From the NCBI GenBank assembly GCA_000505065.1, contig AWSN01000001.1, positions 196,567-260,566 on the forward strand: DNA of 64,000 nucleotides, given 5' to 3'. The stretch comes from Parcubacteria bacterium RAAC4_OD1_1. Its GTDB lineage: Bacteria > Patescibacteriota > Minisyncoccia > Phycocordibacterales > UBA9973. The position numbers and the translations under genes were made by a program. Positions 10,403 to 53,155 of this stretch are shown piece by piece; the stretch's first letter is position 1, and the number at the start of each line of letters is the position of its first letter. The notes under the pieces are model-generated. The model did no database searches and had not been told where the DNA came from. It worked only from the letters and a program-made list of their open reading frames with translations.

Positions 10403-10450
10403 TTTATCATAATTATTATAACAAAATTAAAAAACAAATACTATATAAAT

Positions 10451-11149: not shown

Positions 11150-11219
11150 TTGAATAGGTTATAATTTCTAGGTTCTAGTGAATAGTAAATACTAATCACT
11201 AAAAACTAAATATTAATCA

Positions 11220-11678
11220 CTAATTTATAATTTCTTGTTCTTTTATTTTATTAAGTCTCTTTATATGTCTTTCGTCATTTGAAAATGGTGTCTCAAGAAA
11301 TATTTTTACTGCTTCTTTAGCTTCATCTTCTGTTATAAATCTGGCTCCTAAGGAAAGGATATTTGCATTGTTGTGCTCCCTCCCAAGTCTGACAATTTCT
11401 AGATTACCACCATAATATTCTATCGCTCGTATACCGTCTACTTTATTTGCAGAGATTTGCTCTCCTTCACCAGAACCACCTAAGATAATTCCTAATGACT
11501 CACTATCATTTGCTACTGATTCTGCAACGGGAATTATATAGTCTGGGTAATCATCAGTAGGAATTAAAGAAAAAGCTCCCTTGTCACCAAACTCATAACC
11601 AAGTTCTTTTATATATTCTTTTAATTTTTCTTTGAGCTCATATCCCGCATGATCCGAGCCGATATATATTTTTTGCAT
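11220..11678 (-). CDS. rpiB: Ribose-5-phosphate isomerase B
   Basis: MQKIYIGSDHAGYELKEKL... RpiB/LacAB family, 152 aa. Confidence 0.8.
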   Translation of the reverse strand: MQKIYIGSDHAGYELKEKLKEYIKELGYEFGDKGAFSLIPTDDYPDYIIPVAESVANDSESLGIILGGSGEGEQISANKVDGIRAIEYYGGNLEIVRLGREHNNANILSLGARFITEDEAKEAVKIFLETPFSNDERHIKRLNKIKEQEIIN

Positions 11679-11679
11679 T

Positions 11680-12729: not shown

Positions 12730-12762
12730 AGTATTTATATTATAACATTTTATTATTAATAA

Positions 12763-14064
12763 TTAAGCTTTATTATCTTCATTATTATAATTCCAATTTG
12801 GATTATAATAATTACCCTTTCCATCTTCATTTTCATTCATCGCTGTGTATTTCATGAGCTCATTTATTTGTTCATCTGATAAATCAATTTGTTTTAGTTG
12901 TTTATATTGATAATCTTCTTTTAGTAATGGGTAATCATTAATATTAAAATTATCTTCTAATTGATAATTATATTTTTGTTTCGCCATCATCCTTAAACTA
13001 TTAAGTCTAGCTTTTATTTCTGTTTTTTTTATTAAATATTTTCTAACCTCGTCAACAGTTTCAAAATACTTAATTTCTGCTGATTTAATATTATTTATTG
13101 TTTCAATATTTTGAACTATAAAATTTTTTCTATATTGTTTTTCTATTGTATTTATAATATTACTCACAGTATTTTCTTTAAAAATTTTATTAAGGTCATT
13201 ATTATATATATAATTTGAATCTTTTTGTAAATCTTGTAAATATTCTTTAAATTTAGGCTCCAATTTTTTCTTTATATTAACCATATTGTCATATAATAAT
13301 AAATCTTCTGCCTCTTTTAGATTAAAAGATTTTAAAATTCTAGAAAATCCATCATCTTTTATTTGATGATCATCAGGTCTAATTTCAACAGCATGTGAAA
13401 ATTCATGATTAAACGCATTTTCATTCACCCCTACTTCAATTTCATTCCATTCAGAATTAAACGATCCTTCAAAGGCTGAAATATTACTTTTAGTTAATAT
13501 ACTAACTTTTTCTGCTTGTTTTAATCTTTCTTCATATTCTTTATCAATCTCCTTTATCTCTTCCTCGTTTAAAGTTTTATCACCATACATTTCTTTTTTT
13601 AAACGTTCCTTATATGATGGATCTTTTATATATTCAATATATCTATTTCTCATTATTTTATTAAAATCCTCATTATTTTCAGGTCTATTTTGATCTTCAA
13701 AAAAAGAAAAGACTCCATCTTTTCCAAATATTTCTTTTCTTCTGTCTATGAAATCTTGATTTTCTAATTCTTTTTCTATTTCCTCTTTGTAATCTTTATT
13801 TTCTTTTGAAATTCCTAAATCATTTTCAATTTCTTTAATTTTTTCTAATCTAATTGAATCGGTTTGTTTTTTTATTGATTCTTTTTCATTCTGATTTTGT
13901 GTTGTATCAGACACTATTTCAGTCTCATTTAGTTCTTTTTCTTTTCGATCAGACTTAACTTCTTGTGCTTCTAAGCTACCCAAAGAAGCAGAAACTACTC
14001 CAGCTCCAATAGCTGTTTTTGTAGCCACTTTTTTAACTTTTTCAAAATCAAATTTCATAACCAT
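12763..14064 (-). CDS. Hypothetical highly charged protein with N-terminal hydrophobic segment and HExxH motif
   Basis: N-terminus VATKTAIGAGVVSASLGSLEA (signal/anchor). NAFNHEFSHAVEI is a possible Zn-metallopeptidase-like motif, DUF4157-style. 433 aa. Confidence 0.5.
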   Translation of the reverse strand: MVMKFDFEKVKKVATKTAIGAGVVSASLGSLEAQEVKSDRKEKELNETEIVSDTTQNQNEKESIKKQTDSIRLEKIKEIENDLGISKENKDYKEEIEKELENQDFIDRRKEIFGKDGVFSFFEDQNRPENNEDFNKIMRNRYIEYIKDPSYKERLKKEMYGDKTLNEEEIKEIDKEYEERLKQAEKVSILTKSNISAFEGSFNSEWNEIEVGVNENAFNHEFSHAVEIRPDDHQIKDDGFSRILKSFNLKEAEDLLLYDNMVNIKKKLEPKFKEYLQDLQKDSNYIYNNDLNKIFKENTVSNIINTIEKQYRKNFIVQNIETINNIKSAEIKYFETVDEVRKYLIKKTEIKARLNSLRMMAKQKYNYQLEDNFNINDYPLLKEDYQYKQLKQIDLSDEQINELMKYTAMNENEDGKGNYYNPNWNYNNEDNKA

Positions 14065-15659: not shown

Positions 15660-16145
15660 ATGAATAAAAAAAGAAAATGGACTGAAATACAATTAGAAAA
15701 AGCTGTGAAAAATTCTAAAAGTTACAGAAATGTAATTAATATTTTAGGATTAAAACCAACTGGTGGAAATTATGATCAAATTAAAAAATACATAAGACAA
15801 GGTAATTTAAATATAAAACATTTTACTGGTAAAGTTTGGAATAAAGGACTTAAATTCCCTAATAGAAATTATATCGAACTTAAGGATATTTTAATAAAGA
15901 ATAGTTCATACCAAAGCCATAAGTTGAAAAAAAGATTGTTTTCTGTTAAAATAAAAGAACCTAAATGTGAAATTTGTGGGTGGGCTAAATACTCTATTGA
16001 TGGTAGATTGCCATTAGAGCTTGACCATATTAATGGAGATAGACATGACAACAGGTTGGAAAATATTAGGATTTTATGTCCAAATTGTCACAGTCTACAA
16101 TTAACACATAGAGGTAAAAATATAAGAAATGCCCGAGTGGTGTAA
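15660..16145 (+). CDS. HNH homing-type endonuclease
   Basis: MNKKRKWTEIQLEKAV... C-terminal HNH motif CEICGW..DHINGDRHDNRLENIRILCPNCH. The 3' end overlaps tRNA-Leu by 15 nt. TATAAT at 15641..15646. Confidence 0.75.
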   Translation: MNKKRKWTEIQLEKAVKNSKSYRNVINILGLKPTGGNYDQIKKYIRQGNLNIKHFTGKVWNKGLKFPNRNYIELKDILIKNSSYQSHKLKKRLFSVKIKEPKCEICGWAKYSIDGRLPLELDHINGDRHDNRLENIRILCPNCHSLQLTHRGKNIRNARVV

Positions 16146-16215
16146 TTGGTAGCCACGAGAGACTTAAAATTTCTTGCCATTTATTGGCGTGTGGGTTCAA
16201 GTCCCACCTCGGGCA
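16131..16215 (+). tRNA. tRNA-Leu (anticodon UAA)
   Basis: Cloverleaf parsed by eye: acceptor GCCCGAG/CTCGGGC, D-arm, anticodon loop CTTAAAA (TAA), long variable arm, T-arm GTGGG-TTCAAGT-CCCAC, discriminator A. Confidence 0.8.
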
Positions 16216-16240
16216 CAAATAGAAATAAAAGTAATTTTAG

Positions 16241-38004: not shown

Positions 38005-39057
38005 TTATATATAATCCTGCATTGTTAGGCAATGTATCGCTCCACCGCCTATTATTAATTGAGAACAATCAATGCCAATTACTTTATGTTTTTTAAATAA
38101 TGATTGGATTATCTTCATAGCTTTTTTGTCGTTTGGGTCATTAAAAACAGACATTAAAATTACAGAATTTCCAATATAAAAATTAGCATAAGACACTGGG
38201 GCCTTCTCTCCATTTTTATAATTCATATGAGGCATTGGAAGTTTGACTAATTTAAATTTTTTACCTTTTTCATTAGTGGCTTTTTTAAACCTATTATAAT
38301 TTTCTTTCAAAATATTATAATTTTCATCTTTTTTATTATTTTCATAGGCACAGACGATAGTATTTGAGTTCACAAATCGAGCTATTTCATCTATATGCCC
38401 ATCTGTATGATCATTTGTAAGTCCATCTTTGAGCCAAATTATATTTTCAGCCCCGAGATACGCCTTTAAATAAATCTCTGTACGACTTCGATCTAAATCA
38501 GGATTCCTATTTGGATTCAAAAGGCACTGTTCTGTAGTCATAATTGTTCCCTTACCATTTGATTCTACCGCTCCACCTTCTAAAATTATTTCGGGCTTAA
38601 AAACCTCATATTTAGATTTATCTAAAATATCATTGAAAACCTTATCGTCTTTTAATAAATCCGCAAAAAATGGATCATCACCCTTACCATAAGCATTATA
38701 ATTCCATTTTACAAAAGCCAATTTATCATTTTTTTTATTAAACAAAGTTATAGGAGCATAATCCCTTACCCAAACATCTGCATAATCAGGTTTTATATAA
38801 AAAGTAATATTTTTTATATTGATTCCATAATTGATAAACAATTTTGAAATTCTCTCTTTTTCAAATTCACTTAAGATAATTAATTTTATTTTTTCACTTA
38901 CTTCTATTTTTTTTATTATCTCACAATAAGTATCTTCAATTTCACTTAAAATATTAGGGAAAGTAATATCTCCATATGGCCAAGCAAGCCAAACAGCTGA
39001 ATGCTTTTCCCATTCTGCTGGCATATAGTATCCTAGTTCTTTTGGAATTATAATCAT
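38005..39057 (-). CDS. aguA: Agmatine deiminase
   Basis: PAD_porph family. MPAEWEKHSAVWLAWPY N-terminus and GGGAIHCLTMQ catalytic-Cys C-terminus. Confidence 0.85.
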   Translation of the reverse strand: MIIIPKELGYYMPAEWEKHSAVWLAWPYGDITFPNILSEIEDTYCEIIKKIEVSEKIKLIILSEFEKERISKLFINYGINIKNITFYIKPDYADVWVRDYAPITLFNKKNDKLAFVKWNYNAYGKGDDPFFADLLKDDKVFNDILDKSKYEVFKPEIILEGGAVESNGKGTIMTTEQCLLNPNRNPDLDRSRTEIYLKAYLGAENIIWLKDGLTNDHTDGHIDEIARFVNSNTIVCAYENNKKDENYNILKENYNRFKKATNEKGKKFKLVKLPMPHMNYKNGEKAPVSYANFYIGNSVILMSVFNDPNDKKAMKIIQSLFKKHKVIGIDCSQLIIGGGAIHCLTMQDYI

Positions 39058-39172: not shown

Positions 39173-40036
39173 CTATTTTATCTTATCTATTATTTTTTTA
39201 TAAGTATCAGGTCTTCGATTTCTCATAAATCCCCAATCTTCGGAGATAATATCATTCATGGATAAATCCAGTGTTTGTATTATTATCTCATCTTTTTTAG
39301 AATTAGCTCTTTTGAGAACTTTACCAAAAGCATCTGTCACAAAAGATTGCCCCCAGAAATTTAAATTACCTTCTTTACCTACTCTATTTACAGCGATAAC
39401 AGGAAGACTATTAGCAATAGAATGCCCTCTCATCACTGTTTCCCATGCATCATGCCAATCTCCATCTTTTGGTTTGTTCCCTATAATATTACCTATTGCG
39501 GTAGGATAAAATATCATTTCTGTGCCTGAAAGTTTAGAAACTCTAGCTGCTTCAGGAAACCATTGATCAAAACAGATAAGTACAGTATAAGATACATCTT
39601 TGTGTTTATATAAACTATACCCATTATCCCCTTCGGCAAAATAATCCTTTTCATAAAAGCTTGGATCATGAGGTATGTGTATTTTCCTATAAGACTTTCC
39701 AATTTCTCCTTTTTCATTCAAAACTACAACCGTATTAAAATATTTTCCTGCTTTAGTTTTTTCATAAATTGGTAGAATTATAGAGCAACCATATTTTTTA
39801 GAAATTACAGAAAATGCATTTGTAGATTCCCCAGGAATAGTCTCTAAATAATCTTTTATATCCACACCTTTTTCTCTAGGAAAATACGGGGTCTTATAAA
39901 GCTCTTGCAAGCAAATAATCTCTGCTCCCTTTTTAGCGGCAGTTTCTACCATCTTTAAAGTCTTTTCTAAATTTGATTTCAAATTATTAGAAACTGAACT
40001 TTGTATTAACCCAACTTTTATTAATTTTTTTGACAT
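39173..40036 (-). CDS. aguB: N-carbamoylputrescine amidohydrolase (CN-hydrolase family)
   Basis: Nitrilase-superfamily fold. Context with aguA. 287 aa. Confidence 0.8.
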   Translation of the reverse strand: MSKKLIKVGLIQSSVSNNLKSNLEKTLKMVETAAKKGAEIICLQELYKTPYFPREKGVDIKDYLETIPGESTNAFSVISKKYGCSIILPIYEKTKAGKYFNTVVVLNEKGEIGKSYRKIHIPHDPSFYEKDYFAEGDNGYSLYKHKDVSYTVLICFDQWFPEAARVSKLSGTEMIFYPTAIGNIIGNKPKDGDWHDAWETVMRGHSIANSLPVIAVNRVGKEGNLNFWGQSFVTDAFGKVLKRANSKKDEIIIQTLDLSMNDIISEDWGFMRNRRPDTYKKIIDKIK

Positions 40037-40146: not shown

Positions 40147-41349
40147 TTACGACAACCTATTTTTAAAATCTTTATAATTAAACCTTTTTACAATTTTAAT
40201 CTTTTTATCTTTACCCATTATAGCAATATTTGGAAGGTTTATACCATTAAATGTATTATTCTTCACCATTGTATAAATAGCCATATTCATAAATACAACC
40301 CTGTCTCCTATTTTAAGAGGATTTTTAAAAGCATACTCACCTATAACATCACCAGTAAGGCAAGATGGCCCTACGAGCCTATAAACATTCTCATTATCTT
40401 CACTTGGGAGCTCAGCTCCCAAGATGGTTGGAAGATATGGCATCTCTATCACATCTGGCATATGGCAAGTAGGAGAAATATCCAAAACTGCAATATTTTT
40501 ACCATTTCTAAAGATATCTATCACGCTTCCCACCAAGACGCCAGCATTGAGTGCCACAGCCTCTCCAGGCTCAAGATACACCTCTAGGTGTGGATACCTA
40601 ACCTTAAAATCTTTAATAATCTTTTTAAGTAAATCTAAATCATAATCCTCTCTTGTGATATGATGCCCACCACCAAAATTTACCCATTTCATTTTTGCAA
40701 AAAATTTACCAAATTTTTCCTCAAAGACTTTAAGAGATCTTTCAAGTGCGTCAGCATTAAGCTCGCAAAGATTATGAAAATGAAGTCCTTCTATGCCATC
40801 TAAATTATCTTCCTCAAAATTTGCTCTTGTAACTCCAAATTGAGAATTAGGTCGTGATGGGTCATACATCTCAATCTCTGATTCACTATGTTCCAAGTTC
40901 ACACGGATACCACAAGAAACCCGCTTCTTAGATTTTTCAACAATTTTTTGAAATTTATTCCATTGTGAAAATGAATTAAAAACAAGATGATCAGAATATT
41001 TTATATAATCTTTTATGTTTTCTTCTGTATAAGAAGGAGAAAATGTGTGAACTTCCTTTTTAAATTCTTCATACCCTAGACGTGCTTCATTTACCGAGCT
41101 TGCTTCACTACCAGAAAGATACTTGCGAACCAAAGGAAAAGTAGAAAACATAGAAAAACCTTTCATAGCAAGAAGTATCTTGCAACCTGTTTCTTTTTGT
41201 ACTTCATTTAGAATCTTTAAATTCTTTTCAGTATGTGGCAAAGAAACTACATAGGTTGGTGTATCTTTTAACTTACTTAATTCTTTTTCACTCCAACCTT
41301 CTTCGTTTATCCAAGGCTCAACAAACGGTTCGTTACAATTTTTTGACAT
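40147..41349 (-). CDS. nspC: Carboxynorspermidine/carboxyspermidine decarboxylase
   Basis: Fold-III PLP decarboxylase of ~400 aa with CANSDC-like N-terminus. Adjacent to the CANSDH gene. Confidence 0.75.
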   Translation of the reverse strand: MSKNCNEPFVEPWINEEGWSEKELSKLKDTPTYVVSLPHTEKNLKILNEVQKETGCKILLAMKGFSMFSTFPLVRKYLSGSEASSVNEARLGYEEFKKEVHTFSPSYTEENIKDYIKYSDHLVFNSFSQWNKFQKIVEKSKKRVSCGIRVNLEHSESEIEMYDPSRPNSQFGVTRANFEEDNLDGIEGLHFHNLCELNADALERSLKVFEEKFGKFFAKMKWVNFGGGHHITREDYDLDLLKKIIKDFKVRYPHLEVYLEPGEAVALNAGVLVGSVIDIFRNGKNIAVLDISPTCHMPDVIEMPYLPTILGAELPSEDNENVYRLVGPSCLTGDVIGEYAFKNPLKIGDRVVFMNMAIYTMVKNNTFNGINLPNIAIMGKDKKIKIVKRFNYKDFKNRLS

Positions 41350-41376: not shown

Positions 41377-43092
41377 TTAATAAATTTCATTCTGGTAGCA
41401 TTTTTCACAATATATAATCTCTGGTCTCTCTGGGGCGTAAGGGGTTTCAAATTCATTATTACATCCTTCTTTCATACACTTACGATGCCAAAGCTTAAAT
41501 GGATTCCTTTGAGATAATCTTTCATAATGCCTACAATTAGGGCAATATCTAGGCAGTGCTATATTATGACGCCTTAAAAAAGATAATTCTTCTGGCATTA
41601 TTCTATAAGCAAGGGTACATTGAGTCAATTCATTCCCGTTATTAGGGCAAGATATTATTTCATTGATAATTTCATCTTTTACATCCTTTATATGATCTGG
41701 TAAATCTTCACTTTTAATAGTTACATTGTAATTTCTTTCAATTGGTTTTCTATACAAATAACCTTCTTCAGAAATAGAATTCTTACTTTTAGGATAATAT
41801 TCTTGAGCTATGGTTTCATTGTAAGCAAATGGAGATAATTCGGGTGGAAAAAATTCACCATATTTATATACTCTACCTTTATTATCTATATATGGCATAT
41901 CTGACATATGGTCTATTATTTTGGGAATTAACTTCTCATATTCTTCTTTGGTGTATTGTTTGTTCAAGATACAATATTCACCCTTTCTAATTCCAATGCA
42001 ACCAAAAAGATTTTTTGAATTGTAACACATATAAGTATAATTTGTATCTATACTTCCATGATTTAAAACACAAAATAGATTATTAAAAGCCTTCAATCCA
42101 GAATCAACCCCTTCATACATTAAAGAAGTTCCTACTCCAAATCCATACATATCATAACTATCTTTAGCGTCGAAACCATGAATTAAATATTTTGAATCTT
42201 CTACAAGCCCATATATATCAAAACAATTTTTAATATTTTTAGAATTCAAAATAGCATCACCAACACAATCCACTGACTTTATAATCCCAGCATATTTATT
42301 TGGATAATTCAAAATAAAATTTTTATATTTATTTTTAAATTCATTCAATATCTTATAACTACCAAAATCTAGTTCCTTTTTTATTTTTTCATATTCTTCT
42401 TTTAAATATTGTTCATTTAATATACAAAATTTTTTATTTCTTAAATTTACACAACCAATACAATCTTGACAATTAATACATTCTTTAAGAAAAATAGAAT
42501 TTATTGATTGATCTGCACCAAAAGAAAAGAAAGTCTTATAAGATGAATCACAAAAAGAATCTTCATAACATTCTTCACATTTCTGAATTTTATATGTATC
42601 AAAACAATTTTTCAAACTAGAGGCACCAAGAGAATACATAGTATCTTCTGCTAAATAAGATGCGTAAACTAAATAGCAATTTTTTAAGTCTAAAGCATGA
42701 TTTACATAAGGTGAATTTATGCAATTATTATTACCTAAATTTTGAAGTGGTACTTTTGATATTAACTCTTTGAATTGCTCAAAAAATGGTTTAGAGAAAT
42801 CATATTCTTTTCCGTAATCTTTTGGATCCCATTTATCACTCCACCATATATCACGATCATAAACTTTAACATTAGCCTTTGGGTGAAACATAGTAATCAT
42901 ATTATTGCCACCAAAATCACAAATTCTCCTAAAAAGAGCTCTTTCATTTCTCCAAACCATTCTTCTTACCACCCTACACTCCGGGCAAAATGTCGGTGGA
43001 GAGACTTTTATTTTTTCATAAAATACAAAATCTTCCGGCTCAATAATAAAGTCATTTTTACAATTCTGACATTTTTTAATCTCATTTTGCAT
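41377..43092 (-). CDS. Cysteine-rich repeat protein of unknown family (571 aa) embedded in the polyamine operon
   Basis: N-terminal zinc-ribbon CQNC..x24..CPEC. Internal ~120-aa duplicated modules ending C(I/F)LN(E/K)QY(L/T)KEEYEK(I/L). C-terminal CPNC..C..GC..YCEKC. Paralog at 63034..64000. Confidence 0.6.
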   Translation of the reverse strand: MQNEIKKCQNCKNDFIIEPEDFVFYEKIKVSPPTFCPECRVVRRMVWRNERALFRRICDFGGNNMITMFHPKANVKVYDRDIWWSDKWDPKDYGKEYDFSKPFFEQFKELISKVPLQNLGNNNCINSPYVNHALDLKNCYLVYASYLAEDTMYSLGASSLKNCFDTYKIQKCEECYEDSFCDSSYKTFFSFGADQSINSIFLKECINCQDCIGCVNLRNKKFCILNEQYLKEEYEKIKKELDFGSYKILNEFKNKYKNFILNYPNKYAGIIKSVDCVGDAILNSKNIKNCFDIYGLVEDSKYLIHGFDAKDSYDMYGFGVGTSLMYEGVDSGLKAFNNLFCVLNHGSIDTNYTYMCYNSKNLFGCIGIRKGEYCILNKQYTKEEYEKLIPKIIDHMSDMPYIDNKGRVYKYGEFFPPELSPFAYNETIAQEYYPKSKNSISEEGYLYRKPIERNYNVTIKSEDLPDHIKDVKDEIINEIISCPNNGNELTQCTLAYRIMPEELSFLRRHNIALPRYCPNCRHYERLSQRNPFKLWHRKCMKEGCNNEFETPYAPERPEIIYCEKCYQNEIY

Positions 43093-43122: not shown

Positions 43123-44373
43123 TTAGTAATTCTTTTTTAATTCTTTTGGAATATCTTTTAGATTTTTGATTATTGTTTTGAGTCCTACTTTTTCCATTTC
43201 TTCTATAAACACTTTTGAATCAAGAGACTTATCTTCTGTGTTTTTAACTCCGACTCCTCCCCATTTACCTTCGAGGACTAATTTAGCTACAGTTACAGTC
43301 GGTATGGCTGTGGTATACCCTATGGCATTTCCGTTTGTTTCTTTGTATGCTTCATGGTGATCACAAACATTATAAATATATACATATTTATTCTTCTTAT
43401 TTTTCTTTCCAGCGATTATATTACCAATATTTGTCTTACCAACATATCCACTATTGAAATCTTCACCTTTTGGAAGTATTGCTTTTAAGAATTTAACTGG
43501 CACCACTTCTTTGCCATCATAATTTATTGGGTCAATTCTAGTTAAGCCGACATTATAAAGCACACGAAGATAAGTAAGATAATTCTTTGAGAATGTCATC
43601 CAAAAACGAATTCTCTTCAATCCTTTAATATGAGTAGGGATAGTTTCAAGTTCTTCGTGATACATTAGATAAGGAGTAAATTTACCAGCTTCTGGAAAAT
43701 TAAATTCAAAATAAGGAGCATCTTCATCAATAAGCTTACCCTTCTCTAGCCATTTACCATCTTTCCAATACTTAATTGGTAAAATAAGTTCACGTAGATT
43801 TATCTCTGGGTCAAAGTTTGGAGCAAATTTAATCTTTTCATCTTTTGATCCACCATTACAATCAAGTATGTCTATGGTATCTATCTGATCAAAAATATAA
43901 TCTCTTGCATAAGCAGAATAGATATTTGAAACACCTGGATCAAACCCAGCTCCTAAAATAGCAAGCAAACCTTTTTTCTTAAATGCTTCATTTTTAGCTA
44001 ATTGTTTCTCATAAGAGAATCCATAATGCTCTGGGTGCTCATAGCAAGCTGTATCTATATACCTTACCCCATATTCTAAACAAGCATCCATAACTACAAG
44101 ATTGTCATAAGGACTCCCCCAATTTACCACCAAATCAGGGCGTACCTCATTTAAAATATTTAGAAAATTTTTACCTGTACCCACATCTGTGATATGTATT
44201 TTTAGGTCTACTTTACCCTTAGACTTTTTCTTTACAGAATCTCTCACAGATTCGCACTTCTTCAAAGTCCTACCTACAACGTGAATCTCTCCAAAAACCT
44301 TTGGATATTGAGCCATCTTATGAAGTCCAACACTTCCTACATTTCCACATCCTATAACTAAAATTTTATTCAT
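43123..44373 (-). CDS. Carboxynorspermidine dehydrogenase/synthase (saccharopine dehydrogenase-like)
   Basis: MNKILVIGCGNVGSVGLHKMAQ Rossmann N-terminus. 416 aa, CANSDH family. Confidence 0.75.
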   Translation of the reverse strand: MNKILVIGCGNVGSVGLHKMAQYPKVFGEIHVVGRTLKKCESVRDSVKKKSKGKVDLKIHITDVGTGKNFLNILNEVRPDLVVNWGSPYDNLVVMDACLEYGVRYIDTACYEHPEHYGFSYEKQLAKNEAFKKKGLLAILGAGFDPGVSNIYSAYARDYIFDQIDTIDILDCNGGSKDEKIKFAPNFDPEINLRELILPIKYWKDGKWLEKGKLIDEDAPYFEFNFPEAGKFTPYLMYHEELETIPTHIKGLKRIRFWMTFSKNYLTYLRVLYNVGLTRIDPINYDGKEVVPVKFLKAILPKGEDFNSGYVGKTNIGNIIAGKKNKKNKYVYIYNVCDHHEAYKETNGNAIGYTTAIPTVTVAKLVLEGKWGGVGVKNTEDKSLDSKVFIEEMEKVGLKTIIKNLKDIPKELKKNY

Positions 44374-44519
44374 TTTATTTAAAGCATAATTAAAATAATA
44401 ACCTTTATATTTTACTACAAACCACTCAAAATAAAAAGCCTTGATTTTTGGTGTAAATACTATAAAATTAAAGAGTTTATAGTTAATACATCCACCAATT
44501 TTAAAAGGTGGTAAATAAA

Positions 44520-45857
44520 ATGTCTAAAACAATAATCGTCAATAAATTTGGTGGAGGAATTCTAAAGAAAGATTTTATTCCCCTAATATCAAAAAGATTA
44601 AAAGAACAACTTAAAAATGGTACGAGGCCCATTGCTGTTCTTTCTGCTATGCCAGGAGTCACAGATGAACTTCTTGCTTTTGTGGCAATAATTAGAGAAA
44701 ATAATACTAAAGAAAATGTAGAATCTCATATAGAGAACATAAAAAAGAAACATTTCGATATAATAGAATCTATCGATATTGATAAAAATCAAATCACTTA
44801 TTTAAAAAATGATATTCTTAATTCTTTAAACAAACTAAAGGATGACTTAAATAAAAACAAAAAATTTGATAATAAATTAGAAGATAAAATAGTTTCTTAT
44901 GGTGAGAGACTTTCTACTATAATAATGAGCTATTACTTCAAAAAAACAATTCCTGAAGTAGAGACATTGCTTGCCGAAGACATTCCTATAATTACAGATG
45001 ATAATTTCAAAAATGCTAATATAAATTATGAAGTATCTAAAAAGAATCTAATAGAAAAAATAAAAAATACAAAAGGGCTCGTTGTGATATCTGGATTCAC
45101 TGGTAAAACTAAAAACGGAGAGATCACTACACTCGGTCGTGGTGGGACAGATACGACAGCGTGCTTTGTGGGGTCTGTACTCAATGCATCTAAGGTAGTT
45201 CTATGGAAAGATGTAGGTGGAGTACTCTCTGCTGACCCTAGAATTATAAAAGATGCTAAAACTATACCTTTTATAGATTATTTTGAAGCAGAAGAAGCGG
45301 GTAAGATAATACACGACAAAGCTATACAATATATAAAAATAAATGAGATCCCAGTAGAAGTTTGCTCAATAATAAACCCTAAACAAAAAACAAAAATAGG
45401 AAAATCATCCAAAAGAACTTTTGGAGCTAAACTTGTAAGTATTAAAAAAGATTTAAATTTTATTTTAATTACAGATGAAAATAAAAAACTTAACGACTTA
45501 ACGCTTTTAGTATCTCAGATATTCAACAAATACAAACTAGAAATAACTTTAATAAGTAATTCCAAATATAGTCTTCAAATAATTTCAGATAATAAAAATG
45601 GAAATTTAGAAAAAGCATGTTTAGAGATAAAAGAAAAAGTGGAAGAAATAAATGTAACCAAAGCTGTGATGATCTTTGCTATAGGAATGTTTGAAGCTAA
45701 AGATGTAAGTACTTTTAATGATATAATACTAAAACAAAATGCAGATTTATTAATAAGTGCTTTCTATTATGAAGACTGTAGAAGGATAGAAGCTATAATA
45801 AATACAAGTGATACAAATAAAGTCGTAAAAGCAGTTTATAAAAAATTTATTAAATAA
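44520..45857 (+). CDS. lysC: Aspartate kinase
   Basis: VNKFGGGIL amino-acid-kinase motif plus C-terminal ACT-like region. AAGGTGG Shine-Dalgarno 8 nt upstream of ATG 44520. The ORF-track start at 44508 is GTG. Confidence 0.75.
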   Translation: MSKTIIVNKFGGGILKKDFIPLISKRLKEQLKNGTRPIAVLSAMPGVTDELLAFVAIIRENNTKENVESHIENIKKKHFDIIESIDIDKNQITYLKNDILNSLNKLKDDLNKNKKFDNKLEDKIVSYGERLSTIIMSYYFKKTIPEVETLLAEDIPIITDDNFKNANINYEVSKKNLIEKIKNTKGLVVISGFTGKTKNGEITTLGRGGTDTTACFVGSVLNASKVVLWKDVGGVLSADPRIIKDAKTIPFIDYFEAEEAGKIIHDKAIQYIKINEIPVEVCSIINPKQKTKIGKSSKRTFGAKLVSIKKDLNFILITDENKKLNDLTLLVSQIFNKYKLEITLISNSKYSLQIISDNKNGNLEKACLEIKEKVEEINVTKAVMIFAIGMFEAKDVSTFNDIILKQNADLLISAFYYEDCRRIEAIINTSDTNKVVKAVYKKFIK

Positions 45858-45863
45858 TTTAAA

Positions 45864-45945
45864 TATAAAAGTTACACAAATTATATTCTGAAAAAAGTCC
45901 TCAGACGAGGGGGACGGGAGCCGGTGCCAGACATTTTTTCATAAA
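45864..45945 (+). repeat. MITE-like TIR element, copy C (in the 5' leader of asd, inverted on the + strand)
   Basis: Reverse complement matches copies A/B/D. Same orientation relative to the downstream gene. Ends ~28 nt before the asd ATG. Confidence 0.7.
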
Positions 45946-45973
45946 ATAATTTGTTTCGCTTTAAAAATTAAAG

Positions 45974-47062
45974 ATGAAAAAAATTAAAGTTGGGATATTG
46001 GGTGCGACAGGAATGGTTGGGCAAAATTATATAAAACTATTAGAAAATCATCCTTGGTTTGATGTTGTGTACTTAGCTGCATCAACAAATTCTGCTGGAT
46101 TAAAATATACTGACGCTGTAAAGGGACGATGGCAGATGACTACCCCTATCCCTAAAAAAATAGAAAATATTAAAGTTGAAGATGTGTCTCAAATAGAAAA
46201 AGCAAAAGGTAAATGTAATTTTGTTTTCTCTGCATTTGAAATTAGTGATAAAAATATCGTAAAAGAAATAGAAGAAAAATATGCAGAAGCTGGCATCCCC
46301 GTAGTTTCTAACGCATCTGCAAATAGGTGGACCACCGATGTCCCTATGCTTATTCCTGAGATAAATGCCTCTCATACAGACATAATAACCACCCAAAAGA
46401 AGAATCATGGGTGGAAAGATGGATTCATTGCTGTAAAGCCTAATTGTAGCTTACAGAGCTATTTAACCCCTATCTATGCTCTAAATAAAGCTGGATTCCC
46501 TATCAAAAGGATATTTATAACAACCTTACAAGCAGTTTCCGGAGCCGGTTATCCTGGAGTACCAAGCCTAGATATGATAGATAATGTAGTTCCTTTTATA
46601 GGAGGAGAAGAAGAAAAAACAGAAAATGAACCACTTAAAATTCTAGGGGAAATTAAAAATGGTAAATTTGAAAAAAATAAAGAATTAAAAATTTCAGCTC
46701 AATGCATGAGAGTTCCCGTATCAGATGGTCATCTTGCTTGTGTTAGTATTTTATTTAAAAACAAAAAACCAACAAAAGAACAAATAATAAAAATCTGGAA
46801 TGAATTCGAGTCTGTTCCCCAAGATTTAAAATTACCATTTGCCCCAGTCCAACCAATAATATATACCGAAGAAGAAAATCGCCCTCAACCCAAAAAAGAC
46901 CGTAATAATGACAAGGCAATGGCTGTTACAGTCGGTAGGCTTCGAGAATGCAATATCTTTGATTATAAATTCGTGGCACTTTCACACAACACAGTTCGTG
47001 GAGCTGCTGGTGGTGGAATATTGAATGCTGAACTTTTGGTTAAAAAAGGATTAATAAAATAA
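45974..47062 (+). CDS. asd: Aspartate-semialdehyde dehydrogenase
   Basis: MKKIKVGILGATGMVGQ N-terminus and catalytic Cys region. 362 aa. Confidence 0.85.
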   Translation: MKKIKVGILGATGMVGQNYIKLLENHPWFDVVYLAASTNSAGLKYTDAVKGRWQMTTPIPKKIENIKVEDVSQIEKAKGKCNFVFSAFEISDKNIVKEIEEKYAEAGIPVVSNASANRWTTDVPMLIPEINASHTDIITTQKKNHGWKDGFIAVKPNCSLQSYLTPIYALNKAGFPIKRIFITTLQAVSGAGYPGVPSLDMIDNVVPFIGGEEEKTENEPLKILGEIKNGKFEKNKELKISAQCMRVPVSDGHLACVSILFKNKKPTKEQIIKIWNEFESVPQDLKLPFAPVQPIIYTEEENRPQPKKDRNNDKAMAVTVGRLRECNIFDYKFVALSHNTVRGAAGGGILNAELLVKKGLIK

Positions 47063-47752
47063 TTATCTCACTTCTAAAAAAATTTTAGGGTGATTATCAA
47101 GTATATTTGTTTTTATTTCAGGAAAAATTTCTCCTTTTTGTAATAGTCCAACAAATTCTGTTATCCTGGTTTTATAAGGGTAAACATATGCTTCAAATAA
47201 AACTCCACGGGCTTTAACTTGTACCATTAATTCTGGTAGTTCTTCTAAAATATATCTTCCAAATTTATTTATCTCATTATTATTAAATGTCCTTTTTTCT
47301 TTTGAAACCCATTCTTTTACAAAATTTTCTATATAATTTTTAAAATTAATATTTTTATCATATAAATTATATAAATATTTAACTTTCTCTTTATATTTAG
47401 AATCTGCAATATCTGACCATGTAGCATATATTATTTTTGCTTGTTCATCTTGACTAAAAGACAAACTAACCCTTTCTTTTATTTTAATAAAAAGATTCCT
47501 TCCGTACCTTATTGCAACCTCTTCTGCGTGACTATCAGACAATTTATTACGAACAGATAAATTAATCCCATGTATTGAGTCAGCAATATAAATTATTACA
47601 TACTCTTTAGTGTGCAATAATGACCATTTAACTAATTTTTCTATATTATCTATACTAAACCATTTATTACCCAAACTAATAGCTACCCCAATATTATATT
47701 TTTTGAGTTCTATATCATTTTTATGGCAACCTCTTATTTGATGTAATTCCAT
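47063..47752 (-). CDS. Cyclodipeptide synthase (CDPS) family protein
   Basis: Catalytic-Ser motif GVAISLGNKWFS (AlbC GISAGNSYFS, YvmC GISPFNSRFS). YILEELPEL (AlbC YVLAELPLF, catalytic Y/E). AYVYP..TRITEFVGLL (AlbC CYHIDTPITAFL). 229 aa. Confidence 0.6.
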   Translation of the reverse strand: MELHQIRGCHKNDIELKKYNIGVAISLGNKWFSIDNIEKLVKWSLLHTKEYVIIYIADSIHGINLSVRNKLSDSHAEEVAIRYGRNLFIKIKERVSLSFSQDEQAKIIYATWSDIADSKYKEKVKYLYNLYDKNINFKNYIENFVKEWVSKEKRTFNNNEINKFGRYILEELPELMVQVKARGVLFEAYVYPYKTRITEFVGLLQKGEIFPEIKTNILDNHPKIFLEVR

Positions 47753-47780
47753 AAATGTATTTTAATATAATTTTCTGTAA

Positions 47781-49157
47781 CTACCAACCAAATTCTTTAC
47801 CTACGTCTTCAGGAGATTCTCGTTTTCGTGCTACAACTATATGTCCATTTTCAGCAATTAATTTTAATGGAGAAGAAAGCATGCAATGATGTGATGCTAA
47901 AGCATCTTGATAAGCTCCCGTATCAAAAAATGCGACATAAAGAGTATCGTTGGGATCATAATTATAATCTGGTAAGACAACTGTATCATTAACTCCTGTG
48001 TAAATATCATCTGAATCACACGAAGAACCTGATATCCAAATATCATTTAATTTATTGTCAAATTTATTATTAACAGGAGCAACAAACCATTTTTGATTTA
48101 TACCCCAAACATCAGGTAAATCATTCATCAAGCTTCCATCTATTACATACCATTTTTTTGCTCCAACTTTTTTATTATTTATTATCTTAGTATCAATAAC
48201 TTTAAAAATTGTTATTTGAGCAGGAGCTACCATATACTTTCCCCATTCACAAATAAGATTTGGATGAGAAATTCCCCTCTTTTCTGATTCTTTTTTAAGA
48301 AGTTCAAAAAGTTTTTCTAATATTTTTTCAACAGAATATTTTTTATTTCTTTCAAAAGGAATAGGCATACCACCTCCAATATCTAAAGTATCTAGTGATG
48401 GATTTGTTTCTTTTAATTTAAAATATACATTGAGAGCATATTTGGTGGTTTCAACAAGATCAGATAATTTTTCAATTTTTCCAATTCTATAATGTAAAAC
48501 TTTTAAATTTCTAAAAGATGACATTTTAAGAAGTTCATTTCTGGAAAAACCAAATCTATCTATTTGTTTATTCCAATTTATTTTTGATTTTACTGGTATA
48601 TCAAGTCTAATTCCAACATCGTATTTGGAATTCTGAAAAGTTTTAAGCTCACTAGGACCCTCTATAATAGGTACAACTTTAAGTCCTCTGTGTTGAAGTT
48701 CATCAATAAGATTTATATATCTATCTGTCTTAGGTCCATTACATAAAATACGCATCTTTTCGTTAAAAGATTGCTGTTCTAGCATTTTTTTAACAATATA
48801 AAGTTCATTATAGGATGAAGTTTCAATATTTGCTCCTTCTCCCACCATAGCAAGTACTACTTCTTTTGTTTGACTTGCTTTCATGGGGTAGTGATAAAAA
48901 AACTTCCCCTGATATTTTAATTTTTTAATTAATGAATCAGATAAATCAAGTAGATCTTCAACTCTTTCCTCGATAATATAAGGAAAAAGAATTTCAAGTG
49001 ATGTCCCGAATTTTTCTGCTAGATATTTTATATTATAAACATTATTACCTTCCTTTGCGATAAGATCCCCATCTTTATTGTAATCGAAATATTGTGTATT
49101 AAAATCCTTTATACCAAGCTTCCAAAGTTTCTTAGAAGCAATTGAGCGTTTGGTCAT
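47781..49157 (-). CDS. Fold-III PLP-dependent decarboxylase, biosynthetic arginine decarboxylase (SpeA)-like
   Basis: YHYPMKASQTKEVVLAMVGEGANIETSSYNEL resembles SpeA YPIKVNQHRRVIESL..GLEAGSKAEL. LEILFPYIIEERV resembles LLIRFPQILQHRL. Would supply agmatine to aguA. A DAP-decarboxylase (lysA) role is not excluded. Confidence 0.65.
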   Translation of the reverse strand: MTKRSIASKKLWKLGIKDFNTQYFDYNKDGDLIAKEGNNVYNIKYLAEKFGTSLEILFPYIIEERVEDLLDLSDSLIKKLKYQGKFFYHYPMKASQTKEVVLAMVGEGANIETSSYNELYIVKKMLEQQSFNEKMRILCNGPKTDRYINLIDELQHRGLKVVPIIEGPSELKTFQNSKYDVGIRLDIPVKSKINWNKQIDRFGFSRNELLKMSSFRNLKVLHYRIGKIEKLSDLVETTKYALNVYFKLKETNPSLDTLDIGGGMPIPFERNKKYSVEKILEKLFELLKKESEKRGISHPNLICEWGKYMVAPAQITIFKVIDTKIINNKKVGAKKWYVIDGSLMNDLPDVWGINQKWFVAPVNNKFDNKLNDIWISGSSCDSDDIYTGVNDTVVLPDYNYDPNDTLYVAFFDTGAYQDALASHHCMLSSPLKLIAENGHIVVARKRESPEDVGKEFGW

Positions 49158-49246
49158 CTCATTACATAAGGCATCTTACACTTACCTTTAATAAATAATA
49201 TTAATAAAATATATTATACCAAAACTGAAAAATTTGTAAAGATAAA

Positions 49247-50332
49247 CTATAAACCTTCTTCTTTTAATTTTTCTATTAATTCTTTATTCTTTTTTGAAAG
49301 TTTAGGCATAGTAATATTTACTTTTACTATAATATCTCCTCTTCCATAATTATTTGGAACACCCTTACCTCGTACTCTTAATAATTCTCCATTATTTATT
49401 CCTTCTGGAATTTTTATTTCCAAATTTCCACCATCTAAAAGTTTAAGCTTATAAGTAGAACCTAAAAGTGCATCAGTAAGCTTGATTTTTATTTCTGTAA
49501 TTAGATTATCTCCATCTCTTTTATATATATCATTTGATTTTACTTTCAATCTAATAAATAAATCTCCAAATCTTCCACCTTGCACTCCATCTCCCTCTCC
49601 ATTCAATTTTAATCTTTGCCCATCTTCGACTCCACTAGGAATATTTATAGATATAACATCATCACTTTTGTTAATTCCTATTCCTTTACAATTAGAACAT
49701 TTTTCTTCAGGGATTTTTCCAGATCCGCTACATTCTCCACAAGCAGATACAGATTCAAAATTTCCAAGTATTGTTCTTTTAACTTCTCTTATTTTTCCAG
49801 CACCACCACATTTTTTACAATTATTTAATTTAGTACCCTTTTTTGCTCCAGTACCCTCACAAACTTTACAAGTTGAATTTCTATTAATGCGAATATCTTT
49901 TGAAACTCCAAAAATAGATTCCTCAAATGTTAAATCAAGAAGAACTTCTAGATCTCGCCCTTTTTTCTGGCCTCCTCTAGAACGACCACCCATTCCACCT
50001 CCAAAGAAGTCACCAAAAATATCTCCTAAATCTCCCATGTCAAATTCTACTCCACCATTCGCATTTCTGAAATCAAAACCACCAAAACCTCCAAACCCAG
50101 ACGTTCCAGGATTAAACCCACCCATATCTGCACTACCAAATTGATCATAGTTTGATCTTTTCTTATCATCAGAAAGGATCTGGTAAGCTTCATTTACTTC
50201 CTTGAACTTTGTATCATCACCCTTGTTTTTATCAGGATGGTAAGTGTGTGCAAGCTTATGAAAAGCTTTTTTAATTTCATCTTTTGATGCACCTTTATTT
50301 ACTCCCAAAATTTTATAATAGTCTTTGGACAT
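49247..50332 (-). CDS. dnaJ: Chaperone DnaJ
   Basis: J-domain with HPD, G/F-rich region, four CxxCxGxG repeats. Confidence 0.9.
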   Translation of the reverse strand: MSKDYYKILGVNKGASKDEIKKAFHKLAHTYHPDKNKGDDTKFKEVNEAYQILSDDKKRSNYDQFGSADMGGFNPGTSGFGGFGGFDFRNANGGVEFDMGDLGDIFGDFFGGGMGGRSRGGQKKGRDLEVLLDLTFEESIFGVSKDIRINRNSTCKVCEGTGAKKGTKLNNCKKCGGAGKIREVKRTILGNFESVSACGECSGSGKIPEEKCSNCKGIGINKSDDVISINIPSGVEDGQRLKLNGEGDGVQGGRFGDLFIRLKVKSNDIYKRDGDNLITEIKIKLTDALLGSTYKLKLLDGGNLEIKIPEGINNGELLRVRGKGVPNNYGRGDIIVKVNITMPKLSKKNKELIEKLKEEGL

Positions 50333-50361
50333 AATTTTTATATAATACCATAGTTTAATAA

Positions 50362-50476
50362 AAATTTCTGAAATAATTCTTATCGAGGGGGCGGTTGAGG
50401 CTGACGAGCCGAAACTTCAGCATAAATTTCAGTAGAAATTTTGCGGACCCGAGAGAAGAAGTTATTTCAGAAATTT
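50362..50476 (-). repeat. TIR-flanked structured element between dnaK and dnaJ
   Basis: 15-bp perfect terminal inverted repeats AAATTTCTGAAATAA / TTATTTCAGAAATTT. GC-richer core with nested hairpin AAATTTC-AGTA-GAAATTT and a GGCTCGTCAGCC..CCGCCCCCTCG segment resembling the MITE core. Confidence 0.55.
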
Positions 50477-50496
50477 TATCTATTATTTCTATTTTA

Positions 50497-52386
50497 TTAT
50501 TTACCCTCTTCTTTTACTTCTGCATCTTTTATTTCTGGTTCTTGTTCCTCTGGTGTAGGATTATTTCCTTCGGGTTGTGCGTTTCCTGCTTTACTCATAG
50601 CTTCACCTATTTTAGAAATTTCAGACGAAAGTTCTTCTGTAGATTTCTTAATAGCTTCGATATCATTTCCTTCTTTTACAGTTTTAAGAGAAGTTATCTT
50701 ACCTTCTACTTCTGTTTTTAAAGAAGAATCTATTTTATCTCCATAATCTTTCAAGGATTTTTCTGCAGTAAAGATCATCATATCGGCAGTATTTTTAATA
50801 TCTGCAATTTCTTTTTTCTTTGCATCTTCTTCAGCATGAGCTTCTGCATCTTCTTTCATTTTCTTTATATCTTGATCTGTAAGACCAGAGGAAGCTTCAA
50901 TACGAATAGATTGAACTTTTCCTGAAGCTTTATCCATAGCTTTAACATTAAGTATTCCATTTGCATCAACATCAAAAGAAACTTCAACTTGTGGTATACC
51001 ACGTGGAGCAGGAGGAATACCGTCTAAAATAAACCTTCCGAGAGATTTATTGTCTGTTGCCATTGGGCGCTCACCTTGAACAATATGAATTTCTACACTT
51101 GTTTGATTGTCAGCAGCAGTTGAAAAAACTTGTGATTTAGAAGTAGGAATTGTAGTATTTCTCTCTACAAGCTTTGTAGCAACACCTCCTAAAGTTTCAA
51201 TACCCAAAGATAATGGAATAACATCAAGAAGTAAAACATCACGGACATCCCCTTGAAGAACTCCCCCTTGTACAGCAGCACCAAGCGCTACAACTTCGTC
51301 TGGATTGATTGAACGATTTGGCTCTTTACCAAAAAGTTTTTTCACTTCTTCTACTATTTTTGGCATTCTTGTTTGACCTCCAACCATTATTATTTCATTA
51401 ATATCATCCATTTTAAAAGGACTTGCTTCCATTGCACGCTTTGTAATTTCTATTGAACGATTTATATATTCTTCAGCTAATGACTCTAGGGTTGCACGGG
51501 ACATCTTTATAAGTAAATGCTGAGGACCTTCTGCACCAGATGTTATAAATGGAATATTTACTTCTGTTTCCATTGTAGTTGAAAGTTCAATTTTTGCTTT
51601 TTCAGCTGCTTCATCAAGTCTTTGAAGGGCAAGAGGATCTTTGGTGACATCTATTCCTGATTGTTTCTTAAATTCATCTGCTAACCAATGAATTATTTTT
51701 TGATCAATATCACGACCCCCCATATGAGAATCTCCATCTGTTGACTTCACTTCAATGACATCATCTGAAACTTCAAGAACAGAAACATCAAATGTTCCAC
51801 CTCCAAAATCAAAAACTACAATCTTTTCATTTTTCTTATTATTAAACCCATAAGCAAGAGCAGCGGCGGTTGGTTCGTTTATAATTCTTTTAACATCAAG
51901 CCCAGCGATCATTCCTGCATCTTTTGTAGCTTTTCTTTGTGCATCATTAAAATAAGCAGGAACAGTAATTATCGCTTCTGTTATTTTTTCTCCAAGTTTT
52001 GCTTCGACATCGGCTTTAATTTTAGAAAGTATCATTGCAGAAATTTCTTCTGGACGAAACCATTTTTCACCAATATTTACTTCTGCCCCAGAATCTTTAC
52101 CTTTTTGAATTTTAAATGGGGCAGTCTTTGAAGTTTTCTGTATTTCAGGATCTTCAAACATATGACCCATAAATCTTTTAATACCATAAATTGTATTTTG
52201 TGGATTTGTCACAGACTGACGCTTTGCAAGAAGACCCACTAACCTATCACCATTTTTAGAAATAGCGACAATAGATGGAGTAGTTCTTCCACCTTCTATG
52301 TTCTCTATAATCTTTGGTTGACCACCTTCAATGATAGCAACCGCACTGTTTGTTGTACCCAAATCTATACCTATTATTTTTGACAT
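50497..52386 (-). CDS. dnaK: Chaperone DnaK (Hsp70)
   Basis: [18 protein letters not shown], and full Hsp70 architecture. 629 aa. Confidence 0.95.
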
Positions 52387-52624: not shown

Positions 52625-53155
52625 ATGAAAAAACGTGATTTTTCAAGGAAAATTATAAAAATGCTTTCTGAGAAGCCAGCTATTTCTCTATCTGAAATAG
52701 AAGAAAAGATACTAAATGATAAGTCTACAAAATATGCTTTAAATCGCTCTATAAAGGGTCTAAAAGACTCAGGGCTGATCGAAAACATAGATTCTGGTCA
52801 AAGTAAGTATGCAAAGCTTACAAAGGAAGGTAAGAAAAAGGCCCATAGTATTAAGCTTGAATGTGAGAATGCTGTAATAAGTAATACTTGGGATGGATTT
52901 TGGAGAATTATAATTTTAGATGTAGAAGAAGACAGAAAAAGTGAAAGAGAAGCAATTAGGTATCTACTTAAAAAAGCAGGATTTGTATCTGTAAAAAATT
53001 CTGTTTGGATTTCTATGTATCCTTTCGAATACCTGTTTACAAATATAAAAAATGATTTAGATCTTACAACAGAACTTATGATAATAGTCACAGATAAGAT
53101 CGACAAAAAAACAGAAAAAGAATTTTTATCTCTCTGTTTAACTAAAACAGAGTGA
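52625..53155 (+). CDS. PaaX-like winged-HTH transcriptional regulator (candidate dnaK-operon repressor)
   Basis: N-terminal wHTH. C-terminal WDGFWRIIILDVEEDRKSEREAIRYLLKKAGFVSVKNSVWISMYP matches the PaaX_C pattern WDG.W..v..D.pE..R..R..LR..L...GF..L.NSVWiSP. 176 aa. Confidence 0.6.
   Translation: MKKRDFSRKIIKMLSEKPAISLSEIEEKILNDKSTKYALNRSIKGLKDSGLIENIDSGQSKYAKLTKEGKKKAHSIKLECENAVISNTWDGFWRIIILDVEEDRKSEREAIRYLLKKAGFVSVKNSVWISMYPFEYLFTNIKNDLDLTTELMIIVTDKIDKKTEKEFLSLCLTKTE

Follow-up and report, generated by a model that had tools for sequence, protein, structure and literature searches.

ParcuCDPS of Parcubacteria bacterium RAAC4_OD1_1, a known histidine-accepting cyclodipeptide synthase, in a variable slot beside a predicted arginine decarboxylase gene

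The cyclodipeptide synthase (CDPS) gene considered here lies on the minus strand of a stretch of 64,000 nucleotides (nt) from Parcubacteria bacterium RAAC4_OD1_1 (contig AWSN01000001.1, positions 196,567 to 260,566), which we call the window. It is the single open reading frame (ORF) listed at its position and encodes a protein of 229 amino acids. On the same strand it is preceded, after a 28-nt spacer, by the gene for a SpeA-like fold-III decarboxylase, and downstream it meets the convergent asd gene, with lysC and genes for polyamine synthesis beyond (Table 1). From the identity of the protein and a comparison of related loci, we conclude with high confidence that this ORF is the already characterised enzyme ParcuCDPS and that its gene is a dispensable, stand-alone accessory gene with no functional tie to polyamine synthesis.

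The assignment of the protein as a CDPS is well beyond chance, because it scores above the curated cut-offs of both the Pfam profile CDPS (PF16715; 32.1 bits, cut-off 27) and the NCBIfam model TIGR04539 (54.3 bits, cut-off 45) and because it is 100% identical, from residue 1 to residue 229 (E = 1.4e-150), to a CDPS of solved structure, PDB chain 7QB8_A ('Cyclodipeptide synthase'). Six more PDB entries (7QAQ, 7QAT, 7QAU, 7QAW, 7QAX and 7QAY) are one residue off the window ORF and represent point mutants; the crystallised constructs have 1–7 extra residues (230 or 236 amino acids) compared with the window protein. An exact-sequence look-up returned GenBank ETB63777.1 (locus tag O210_OD1C00001G0241, Parcubacteria bacterium RAAC4_OD1_1, on a contig of 693,530 bp), which is the accession of ParcuCDPS (Sutherland, Harding & Czekster, Commun Chem 2022, PMC7613923), and a sediment metagenome contig of PRJNA167727 carries the same CDPS protein with the same neighbours. 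An earlier note, made from the sequence alone, had called the protein a CDPS and proposed profile searches, structural comparison and an alignment of the catalytic residues as checks. All three bear it out: the two models above find the protein, identity with the crystallised chain gives it the Rossmann fold that resembles class-Ic aminoacyl-tRNA synthetases, and the catalytic Ser, Tyr, Glu and second Tyr align as predicted and are invariant or nearly so in 37 relatives.

The motifs that had been quoted in support of the call lie at S26, Y167, E171 and Y191. The segment GVAISLGNKWFS contains S26, the catalytic serine of the G-x-S-x-G-N loop (GVAISLGN) and the equivalent of S37 in AlbC; YILEELPEL holds Y167 and E171, and AYVYP holds Y189, Y191 and P192, with the Tyr/Glu pair and second Tyr of AlbC (Y178, E182 and Y202) present as Y167, E171 and Y191. 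The earlier reading of AYVYP as the Y202 region was right in that the second tyrosine of this motif, Y191, is the equivalent of AlbC Y202, but Y189 is a separate residue. The Y191-P192 pair is the signature of the XYP subfamily (X40, Y202 and P203 in AlbC numbering); that of the NYH subfamily is N40, Y202 and H203. In the window ORF, all of the active-site and pocket residues (S26, Y55, D58, Y167, E171, E174 and Y191) are found where the published numbering places them.

ParcuCDPS has already been expressed, assayed, crystallised and engineered. It is CDPS 90 of Gondry et al. (Front Microbiol 2018, PMC5816076), who placed it in the XYP subfamily, a class also assigned to it in the structural work (PMC7613923). 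Expressed in E. coli, it made cyclo(His-Pro) (cHP, 44%) and cyclo(His-Glu) (cHE, 56%) in low yield (0.4 mg/L for cHP) (PMC5816076), and formation of both was confirmed in vitro with purified components (PMC7613923). The crystal structure (PDB 7QB8, 1.9 Å) has a Rossmann fold and an active site composed of the catalytic serine S26 with Y167, E171 and Y191; D58 sits at hydrogen-bonding distance from S26, and more than 90% of activity is lost in the variants D58A and D58N (PMC7613923). Y55 and E174 create a negatively charged microenvironment in pocket P1, where the selection of histidine was analysed; the large pocket P2 is solvent-exposed and positively lined (PMC7613923). The same authors mutated Y189 (7QAW), a residue distinct from Y191 (PMC7613923). 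Because these properties are published for the identical protein, neither the enzyme nor its fold, mechanism class or products are new. The gene itself therefore holds no discovery: publications on this very protein go back to 2018, and a crystal structure and engineered variants have been available since 2022. Two statements of the earlier note are accordingly out of date: the product, which it had called unknown, has been shown to be cHP and cHE both in E. coli and in vitro, and the presence of a CDPS in this small-genome bacterium, which it had found unexpected, has been on record since 2018. The genomic context of ParcuCDPS and the biological role of its product are not addressed in the published accounts of the enzyme consulted here.

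A protein search with ParcuCDPS yielded 37 clusters of relatives at 31–86% identity, several of them named Parcubacteria by source. In the alignment of these 37 relatives, S26, D58, Y167 and E171 are invariant, as is the run I25-S26-L27-G28-N29-K30, and conservation reaches at least 90% at E174, Y191 and P192. Y55 is kept in most of them, with Cys-Pro found instead in a small subgroup (P0014, P0019, P0021 and P0035). The members of this subgroup have V-C-P-A-D-D for I-Y-I-A-D-S in the columns of residues 54–57, replacing the pocket-P1 residue Tyr55 by Cys, and judging from the alignment they may differ in first-substrate specificity. The ratio of nonsynonymous to synonymous substitution rates (dN/dS) for the window CDPS against its relatives was 0.15–0.25, and that of the neighbouring decarboxylase 0.04; the CDPS is therefore under purifying selection, less strict than that acting on the decarboxylase.

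The mechanism is known from publications on the identical sequence and on CDPSs as a family: within the narrow pocket P1, Ser26 receives the aminoacyl group from His-tRNA(His), a second aminoacyl-tRNA (Pro or Glu) then binds the larger, positively lined pocket P2, and a dipeptidyl-enzyme intermediate forms and cyclises to cHP or cHE. The native products are probably these same His-containing diketopiperazines, given that the residues of P1 are intrinsic to the protein and that E174 shows at least 90% conservation across the clade. We infer the native product rather than read it from the assays, because these used E. coli and non-native tRNAs. An alternative is that in its native host ParcuCDPS makes a cyclodipeptide other than cHP or cHE, given that specificity also depends on tRNA features and that the tRNAs of Parcubacteria differ from those of E. 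coli. We consider this unlikely, while giving it more weight than any other rival. It draws on the fact that all assays were performed in E. coli cells or with E. coli tRNA pools and synthetases, on the size and solvent exposure of P2 (PMC7613923), and on the apparent promiscuity of that pocket, given that cHP and cHE appear in roughly equal amounts. Against it, Y55 and E174 of P1 are part of the protein and are widely retained in the clade, and since these residues are both intrinsic and conserved, the first substrate is likely to be His in the native host as well. A tRNA scan of the window found no tRNA-His, tRNA-Pro or tRNA-Glu gene; the sole tRNA gene is a tRNA-Leu gene at 16131–16216.

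Upstream of the CDPS gene, the decarboxylase finds its best NCBIfam matches in two models of biosynthetic arginine decarboxylase, NF003763 (163.5 bits, cut-off 369) and TIGR01273 speA (148.5 bits, cut-off 624), and its best PDB match in the biosynthetic arginine decarboxylase 3nzq (E = 2.3e-22). The motifs PMKAS, GGGMP and SSCDS are present. The match to the SpeA profile is confined to positions ~11–366, and the protein has 458 amino acids compared with ~630 in full-length SpeA, so that it has neither the score nor the ~630-residue architecture of a SpeA equivalog; as far as sequence can tell, it may belong to a compact subfamily of arginine decarboxylases outside the current equivalog models. 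We regard it as a probable arginine decarboxylase that catalyses the first step of a local polyamine pathway, with arginine predicted as its substrate because of its homology and of the aguA and aguB genes in its neighbourhood. At eight other loci (L001, L022, L040, L046, L048, L054, L055 and L056) aguB-aguA lie downstream of the decarboxylase orthologue on the same strand, at a distance of ~1.1–1.3 kb in seven of them and further away in L001.

This decarboxylase is widespread in Paceibacteria and Nomurabacteria: a scan of one genome per species found 224 relatives, and we analysed the loci of the best 80 of the 224 (50–98% identity, species representatives). A CDPS was present at only one of the 80, L012, which represents a near-identical strain (98% identity in the decarboxylase and 96% in the CDPS). 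The convergent junction between the decarboxylase gene and asd is a variable slot. We measured it in 20 loci, and among the 18 that were without a CDPS, 13 junctions were empty (35–172 nt) and five contained unrelated ORFs: a membrane protein of ~100 amino acids, alone (L017) or with a TrpB-like ORF (L015), a radical-SAM-like ORF (L016), and two other ORFs (L041 and L070). In a neighbour-joining tree of the decarboxylases, the window and L012 are sister to the CDPS-less L013–L022 group, and L001, a more distant locus at which the pairing recurs, is sister to the CDPS-less L060/L061/L063 group. This patchy distribution implies either that an old insertion was lost repeatedly or that there was more than one transfer into the same junction.

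Base composition was also considered as a sign of horizontal acquisition and set aside, there being no clear anomaly in the GC content of the CDPS gene (25.1%) compared with the window (29.8%) and lysC (27.5%). The region 43123–52386 is unevenly diverged from its counterpart in L012, the closest strain: identity is 98% for the decarboxylase and CANSDH (the carboxy(nor)spermidine synthase/dehydrogenase homologue of Table 1), 96% for the CDPS, 95% for DnaK, 86% for LysC, 80% for Asd and 75% for DnaJ, and the synonymous divergence (dS) comes to 0.07 in the CDPS gene and to 0.26 in that of the decarboxylase. This mosaic suggests recombination within the locus.

Approaching the same question from the CDPS, we dereplicated 72 CDPS loci to 59 lineages and surveyed the neighbours within four genes. 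The decarboxylase was a neighbour in three of the 59. At L001/L002 and L093, where the CDPS is 70–71% identical to that of the window, the whole dnaK-dnaJ-decarboxylase-CDPS|asd-lysC|CANSDH arrangement is common to these loci and the window, and all seven of the relatives that we examined individually at 44–52% CDPS identity were without the decarboxylase; in most of these seven, the CDPS instead lies downstream of a prfB-ftsE-ftsX-pyrG-DUF1761 block, with variable genes beyond. The most frequent neighbour family, GNAT acetyltransferase, occurred in four of the 59 lineages and none occurred in more; asd, DUF1761, a Peptidase_S51-like protein, a SET-domain protein, a P-type ATPase and an adenylate-kinase-like protein occurred in three each, and a methyltransferase dependent on S-adenosylmethionine (SAM) occurred in two. 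No conserved tailoring or partner gene was found within four genes of the CDPS in the 59 lineages.

In its three lineages, the Peptidase_S51-like ORF of ~190 amino acids (dipeptidase E/cyanophycinase family; Pfam 30.4 bits) comes shortly after the CDPS (8744–9328 in L005/L006 and 4786–5355 in L009). It could be a candidate for the turnover of dipeptides or diketopiperazines; it is too rare for a partner.

A conserved decarboxylase-CDPS pairing is thus rejected on account of its scarcity on both sides (1/80 decarboxylase loci and 3/59 CDPS lineages) and of the split tree, and the link between a cyclodipeptide and amine metabolism that the earlier note had raised finds no comparative support. 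The adjacency is lineage-specific and falls in a variable intergenic slot. Because no neighbour family exceeds four of the 59 lineages and the adjacency is not conserved, we take the CDPS to be a stand-alone gene, which would occupy the slot between the decarboxylase gene and asd as a dispensable accessory. Within ~10 kb on either side of the gene in the window there is no cyclodipeptide oxidase, P450, methyltransferase or prenyltransferase, nor another tailoring enzyme such as a 2OG/Fe oxygenase; the earlier note had observed the absence of the first three from the adjacent genes. A tailoring enzyme that adjoins the CDPS and co-occurs with it across relatives, as would mark a CDPS-dependent biosynthetic gene cluster, is thus seen neither in the window nor as a recurrent neighbour in the 59 lineages, and the diketopiperazine is probably not tailored further by a neighbouring gene.

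The 28-nt gap to the decarboxylase gene that had been noted earlier is exact, and this spacer lacks both a terminator-like hairpin and an obvious GGAGG Shine-Dalgarno sequence; a terminator scan of 46800–49400 predicted no hairpin. The best promoter-like site of the region lies in the dnaJ-decarboxylase spacer (Table 1) and could serve as promoter of a joint transcript of the decarboxylase and CDPS genes; a weaker site (9/12, 47787–47759, minus strand) extends across the decarboxylase stop codon and the spacer. The total number of promoter-like sites around the junctions equals the expectation from shuffled sequence. On the other side, the stop codons of two convergent genes adjoin with a gap of 0 nt, that of asd at 47062 and that of the CDPS gene at 47063. 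The corresponding gap in L001 is 1 nt, and the asd/CDPS junction of the window has no predicted terminator-like structure. It is plausible that the CDPS gene is co-transcribed with the decarboxylase gene, and its expression may ride on the transcript or promoter of the latter.

Such an arrangement invites the view that the two genes form a functional pathway, co-transcribed for that purpose, in which the cyclodipeptide feeds, regulates or is modified by amine metabolism. The same-strand 28-nt spacer without a predicted terminator, the placement of the strongest promoter-like site upstream of the decarboxylase gene, and the recurrence of the decarboxylase-CDPS-asd order in L001/L002 and L093 at a CDPS identity of only 70–71% would all fit. 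The two counts given above speak against it, as do sister lineages in which the junction is empty or holds unrelated genes, and the decarboxylase has a full explanation already, as the enzyme that opens a complete agmatine-to-spermidine gene set; we therefore consider a two-gene pathway very improbable. No fold-III decarboxylase is known to act on diketopiperazines. The diketopiperazine ring has no free carboxylate, and cHE has one in its side chain; that this side chain might be a target of the decarboxylase is pure speculation.

Our preferred reading, a characterised enzyme encoded by a stand-alone accessory gene, has to be weighed against several points. The products were identified with tRNAs and aminoacyl-tRNA synthetases of E. 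coli, and expression in this host gave low yields. Our survey of neighbours was built on simple ORF calling, clustering by BLAST and short metagenomic contigs, a procedure by which distant or non-adjacent partners could be missed. Finally, the spacer has no terminator and the position is kept in three lineages at 70–71% protein identity, and because of these two features some co-regulation with the decarboxylase is possible.

A further proposal is that the His-diketopiperazine, a kind of compound that can bind metals, serves in the handling of Cu or Zn, which would explain metal-homeostasis genes near some relatives. The CDPS of L007 is directly followed by genes for a CsoR-like repressor and a CopA-type ATPase (8768–12771; CsoR-CopA-HMA-cupredoxin), and Fur-ZnuABC in L003 (9155–12181), Fur-Zip in L005 (15294–16449) and CsoR-CopA in L097 (9850–10687, 4 kb away) lie within 1.5–7 kb; a crude count gave metal-gene matches in 8 of 28 CDPS lineages and in 0 of 65 decarboxylase control loci. 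We nonetheless regard the proposal as highly doubtful, in that the control loci, which largely share their synteny, are not independent of one another, the count fell to 3 of 23 after the loci that had prompted the idea were dropped (two of the three being generic P-type ATPases with 26–37% identity to CopA), no single metal gene family occurs within four genes of the CDPS in more than three lineages, and the window has no metal gene near the CDPS.

The polyamine genes that the earlier note had placed beside the CDPS, together with asd and lysC, were found by profile matches, those of CANSDH, aguB and aguA being below the cut-offs (Table 1). As predicted by homology, the window contains a complete gene set leading from arginine through agmatine, N-carbamoylputrescine, putrescine and carboxyspermidine to spermidine, and lysC and asd supply the aspartate semialdehyde for the carboxy(nor)spermidine route.

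Table 1. Features of the CDPS locus, in window coordinates.
Feature	Position	Strand	Remarks
ParcuCDPS gene	47063..47752	minus	ATG-to-stop ORF, stop included; 229 amino acids; XYP-subfamily tRNA-dependent CDPS
28-nt spacer, decarboxylase stop (TAG) to CDPS ATG	47753..47780	minus	reads TTACAGAAAATTATATTAAAATACATTT
SpeA-like fold-III decarboxylase (pyridoxal phosphate-dependent), compact	47781..49157	minus	458 amino acids; PF02784 63.1 bits; probable arginine decarboxylase
Sigma-70-like promoter match	49213..49240	minus	TTTACA, 16-nt spacer, TG-extended TATAAT, 11/12; dnaJ-decarboxylase spacer; consensus match only
asd (aspartate-semialdehyde dehydrogenase)	45974..47062	plus	NF006416 478.9 bits (cut-off 232); convergent with CDPS
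lysC (aspartate kinase)	44508..45857	plus	TIGR00657 233.1 bits (cut-off 208.7)
CANSDH, carboxy(nor)spermidine synthase/dehydrogenase homologue	43123..44373	minus	PF16653, PF03435; NF043000 337.6 bits (below 800)
nspC, carboxy(nor)spermidine decarboxylase	40147..41349	minus	TIGR01047 484 bits (cut-off 409)
aguB-like N-carbamoylputrescine amidase	39173..40036	minus	TIGR03381 252.3 bits (below 410)
aguA-like agmatine deiminase	38005..39057	minus	NF010070 295.5 bits, TIGR03380 284.9 bits; both below cut-offs

Between CANSDH and nspC lies a Cys-rich ORF of 571 amino acids (41377–43092, minus strand) that has many CxxC pairs at both ends and no Pfam or NCBIfam match. Homologues with 43–56% identity occupy the same place after CANSDH in L012, L013 and L041, and in L001, L033, L047 and L053 nspC directly follows CANSDH without this ORF between them. 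The other flank of the locus contains dnaJ, dnaK, a gene with a PaaX_M domain, grpE, and the genes for ribosomal proteins S9, L13, L17, S4 and S11 and for RpoA. The PaaX_M gene, an ORF of 176 amino acids (52625–53155, plus strand), is situated between dnaK and grpE on the opposite strand to them; its product has a PaaX_M (Cas2-like) domain and possibly a winged-helix N terminus, its position is kept in L001, and it may regulate the chaperone genes, taking the place of HrcA.

What the comparative context adds to the published enzymology is that adjacency to the decarboxylase gene should not be read as a pathway and that members of this clade behave, in Patescibacteria, like stand-alone accessory genes. 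It is conceivable, though we would put little weight on it, that ParcuCDPS-type enzymes constitute a Patescibacteria-wide stand-alone accessory family (at least 59 lineages) whose untailored His-diketopiperazines act directly, for example as a signal of episymbionts to the host cell or as a Cu/Zn ligand, and that in the lineage of RAAC4_OD1_1, a bacterium with an ultra-small genome, production is linked to the decarboxylase promoter, which lies downstream of dnaK-dnaJ, and through it to stress or polyamine control.

Set beside other characterised CDPSs, the window ORF shows no difference at the protein level from ParcuCDPS, the 229-residue sequence, the organism name and the catalytic and pocket residues all being the same. 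AlbC of Streptomyces noursei is the archetype of the NYH subfamily and belongs to the albonoursin gene cluster with the cyclodipeptide oxidase AlbA/AlbB. ParcuCDPS, in contrast, has no adjoining tailoring enzyme, and none is conserved in the 59 related lineages. The active sites correspond nonetheless, with S37, Y178, E182 and Y202 of AlbC equivalent to S26, Y167, E171 and Y191 of ParcuCDPS (numbering per PMC7613923).

Within the XYP subfamily, Nbra-CDPS (5MLQ), Rgry-CDPS (5MLP) and Fdum-CDPS (5OCD) have in common with ParcuCDPS the Rossmann fold, the Ser/Tyr/Glu/Tyr site, the Y-P signature (Y191-P192 in ParcuCDPS) and a ping-pong aminoacyl-enzyme mechanism. Similarity to other solved CDPSs is low, with the best non-self PDB matches of the window ORF at E = 1e-6 to 1e-3, and the authors of the structure reported root-mean-square deviations of 2.7–2.9 Å between ParcuCDPS and other XYP-family CDPSs (PMC7613923). 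The substrates differ as well: ParcuCDPS uses His, whereas Nbra-, Rgry- and Fdum-CDPS use Gly, Ala, Leu and similar residues. The sole other validated CDPS that accepts His-tRNA(His) is ParaCDPS of Parabacteroides sp. 20_3, which makes cyclo(His-Phe) (PMC7613923); compared here by description only, it differs from ParcuCDPS both in its organism and in the second substrate that it joins to histidine.

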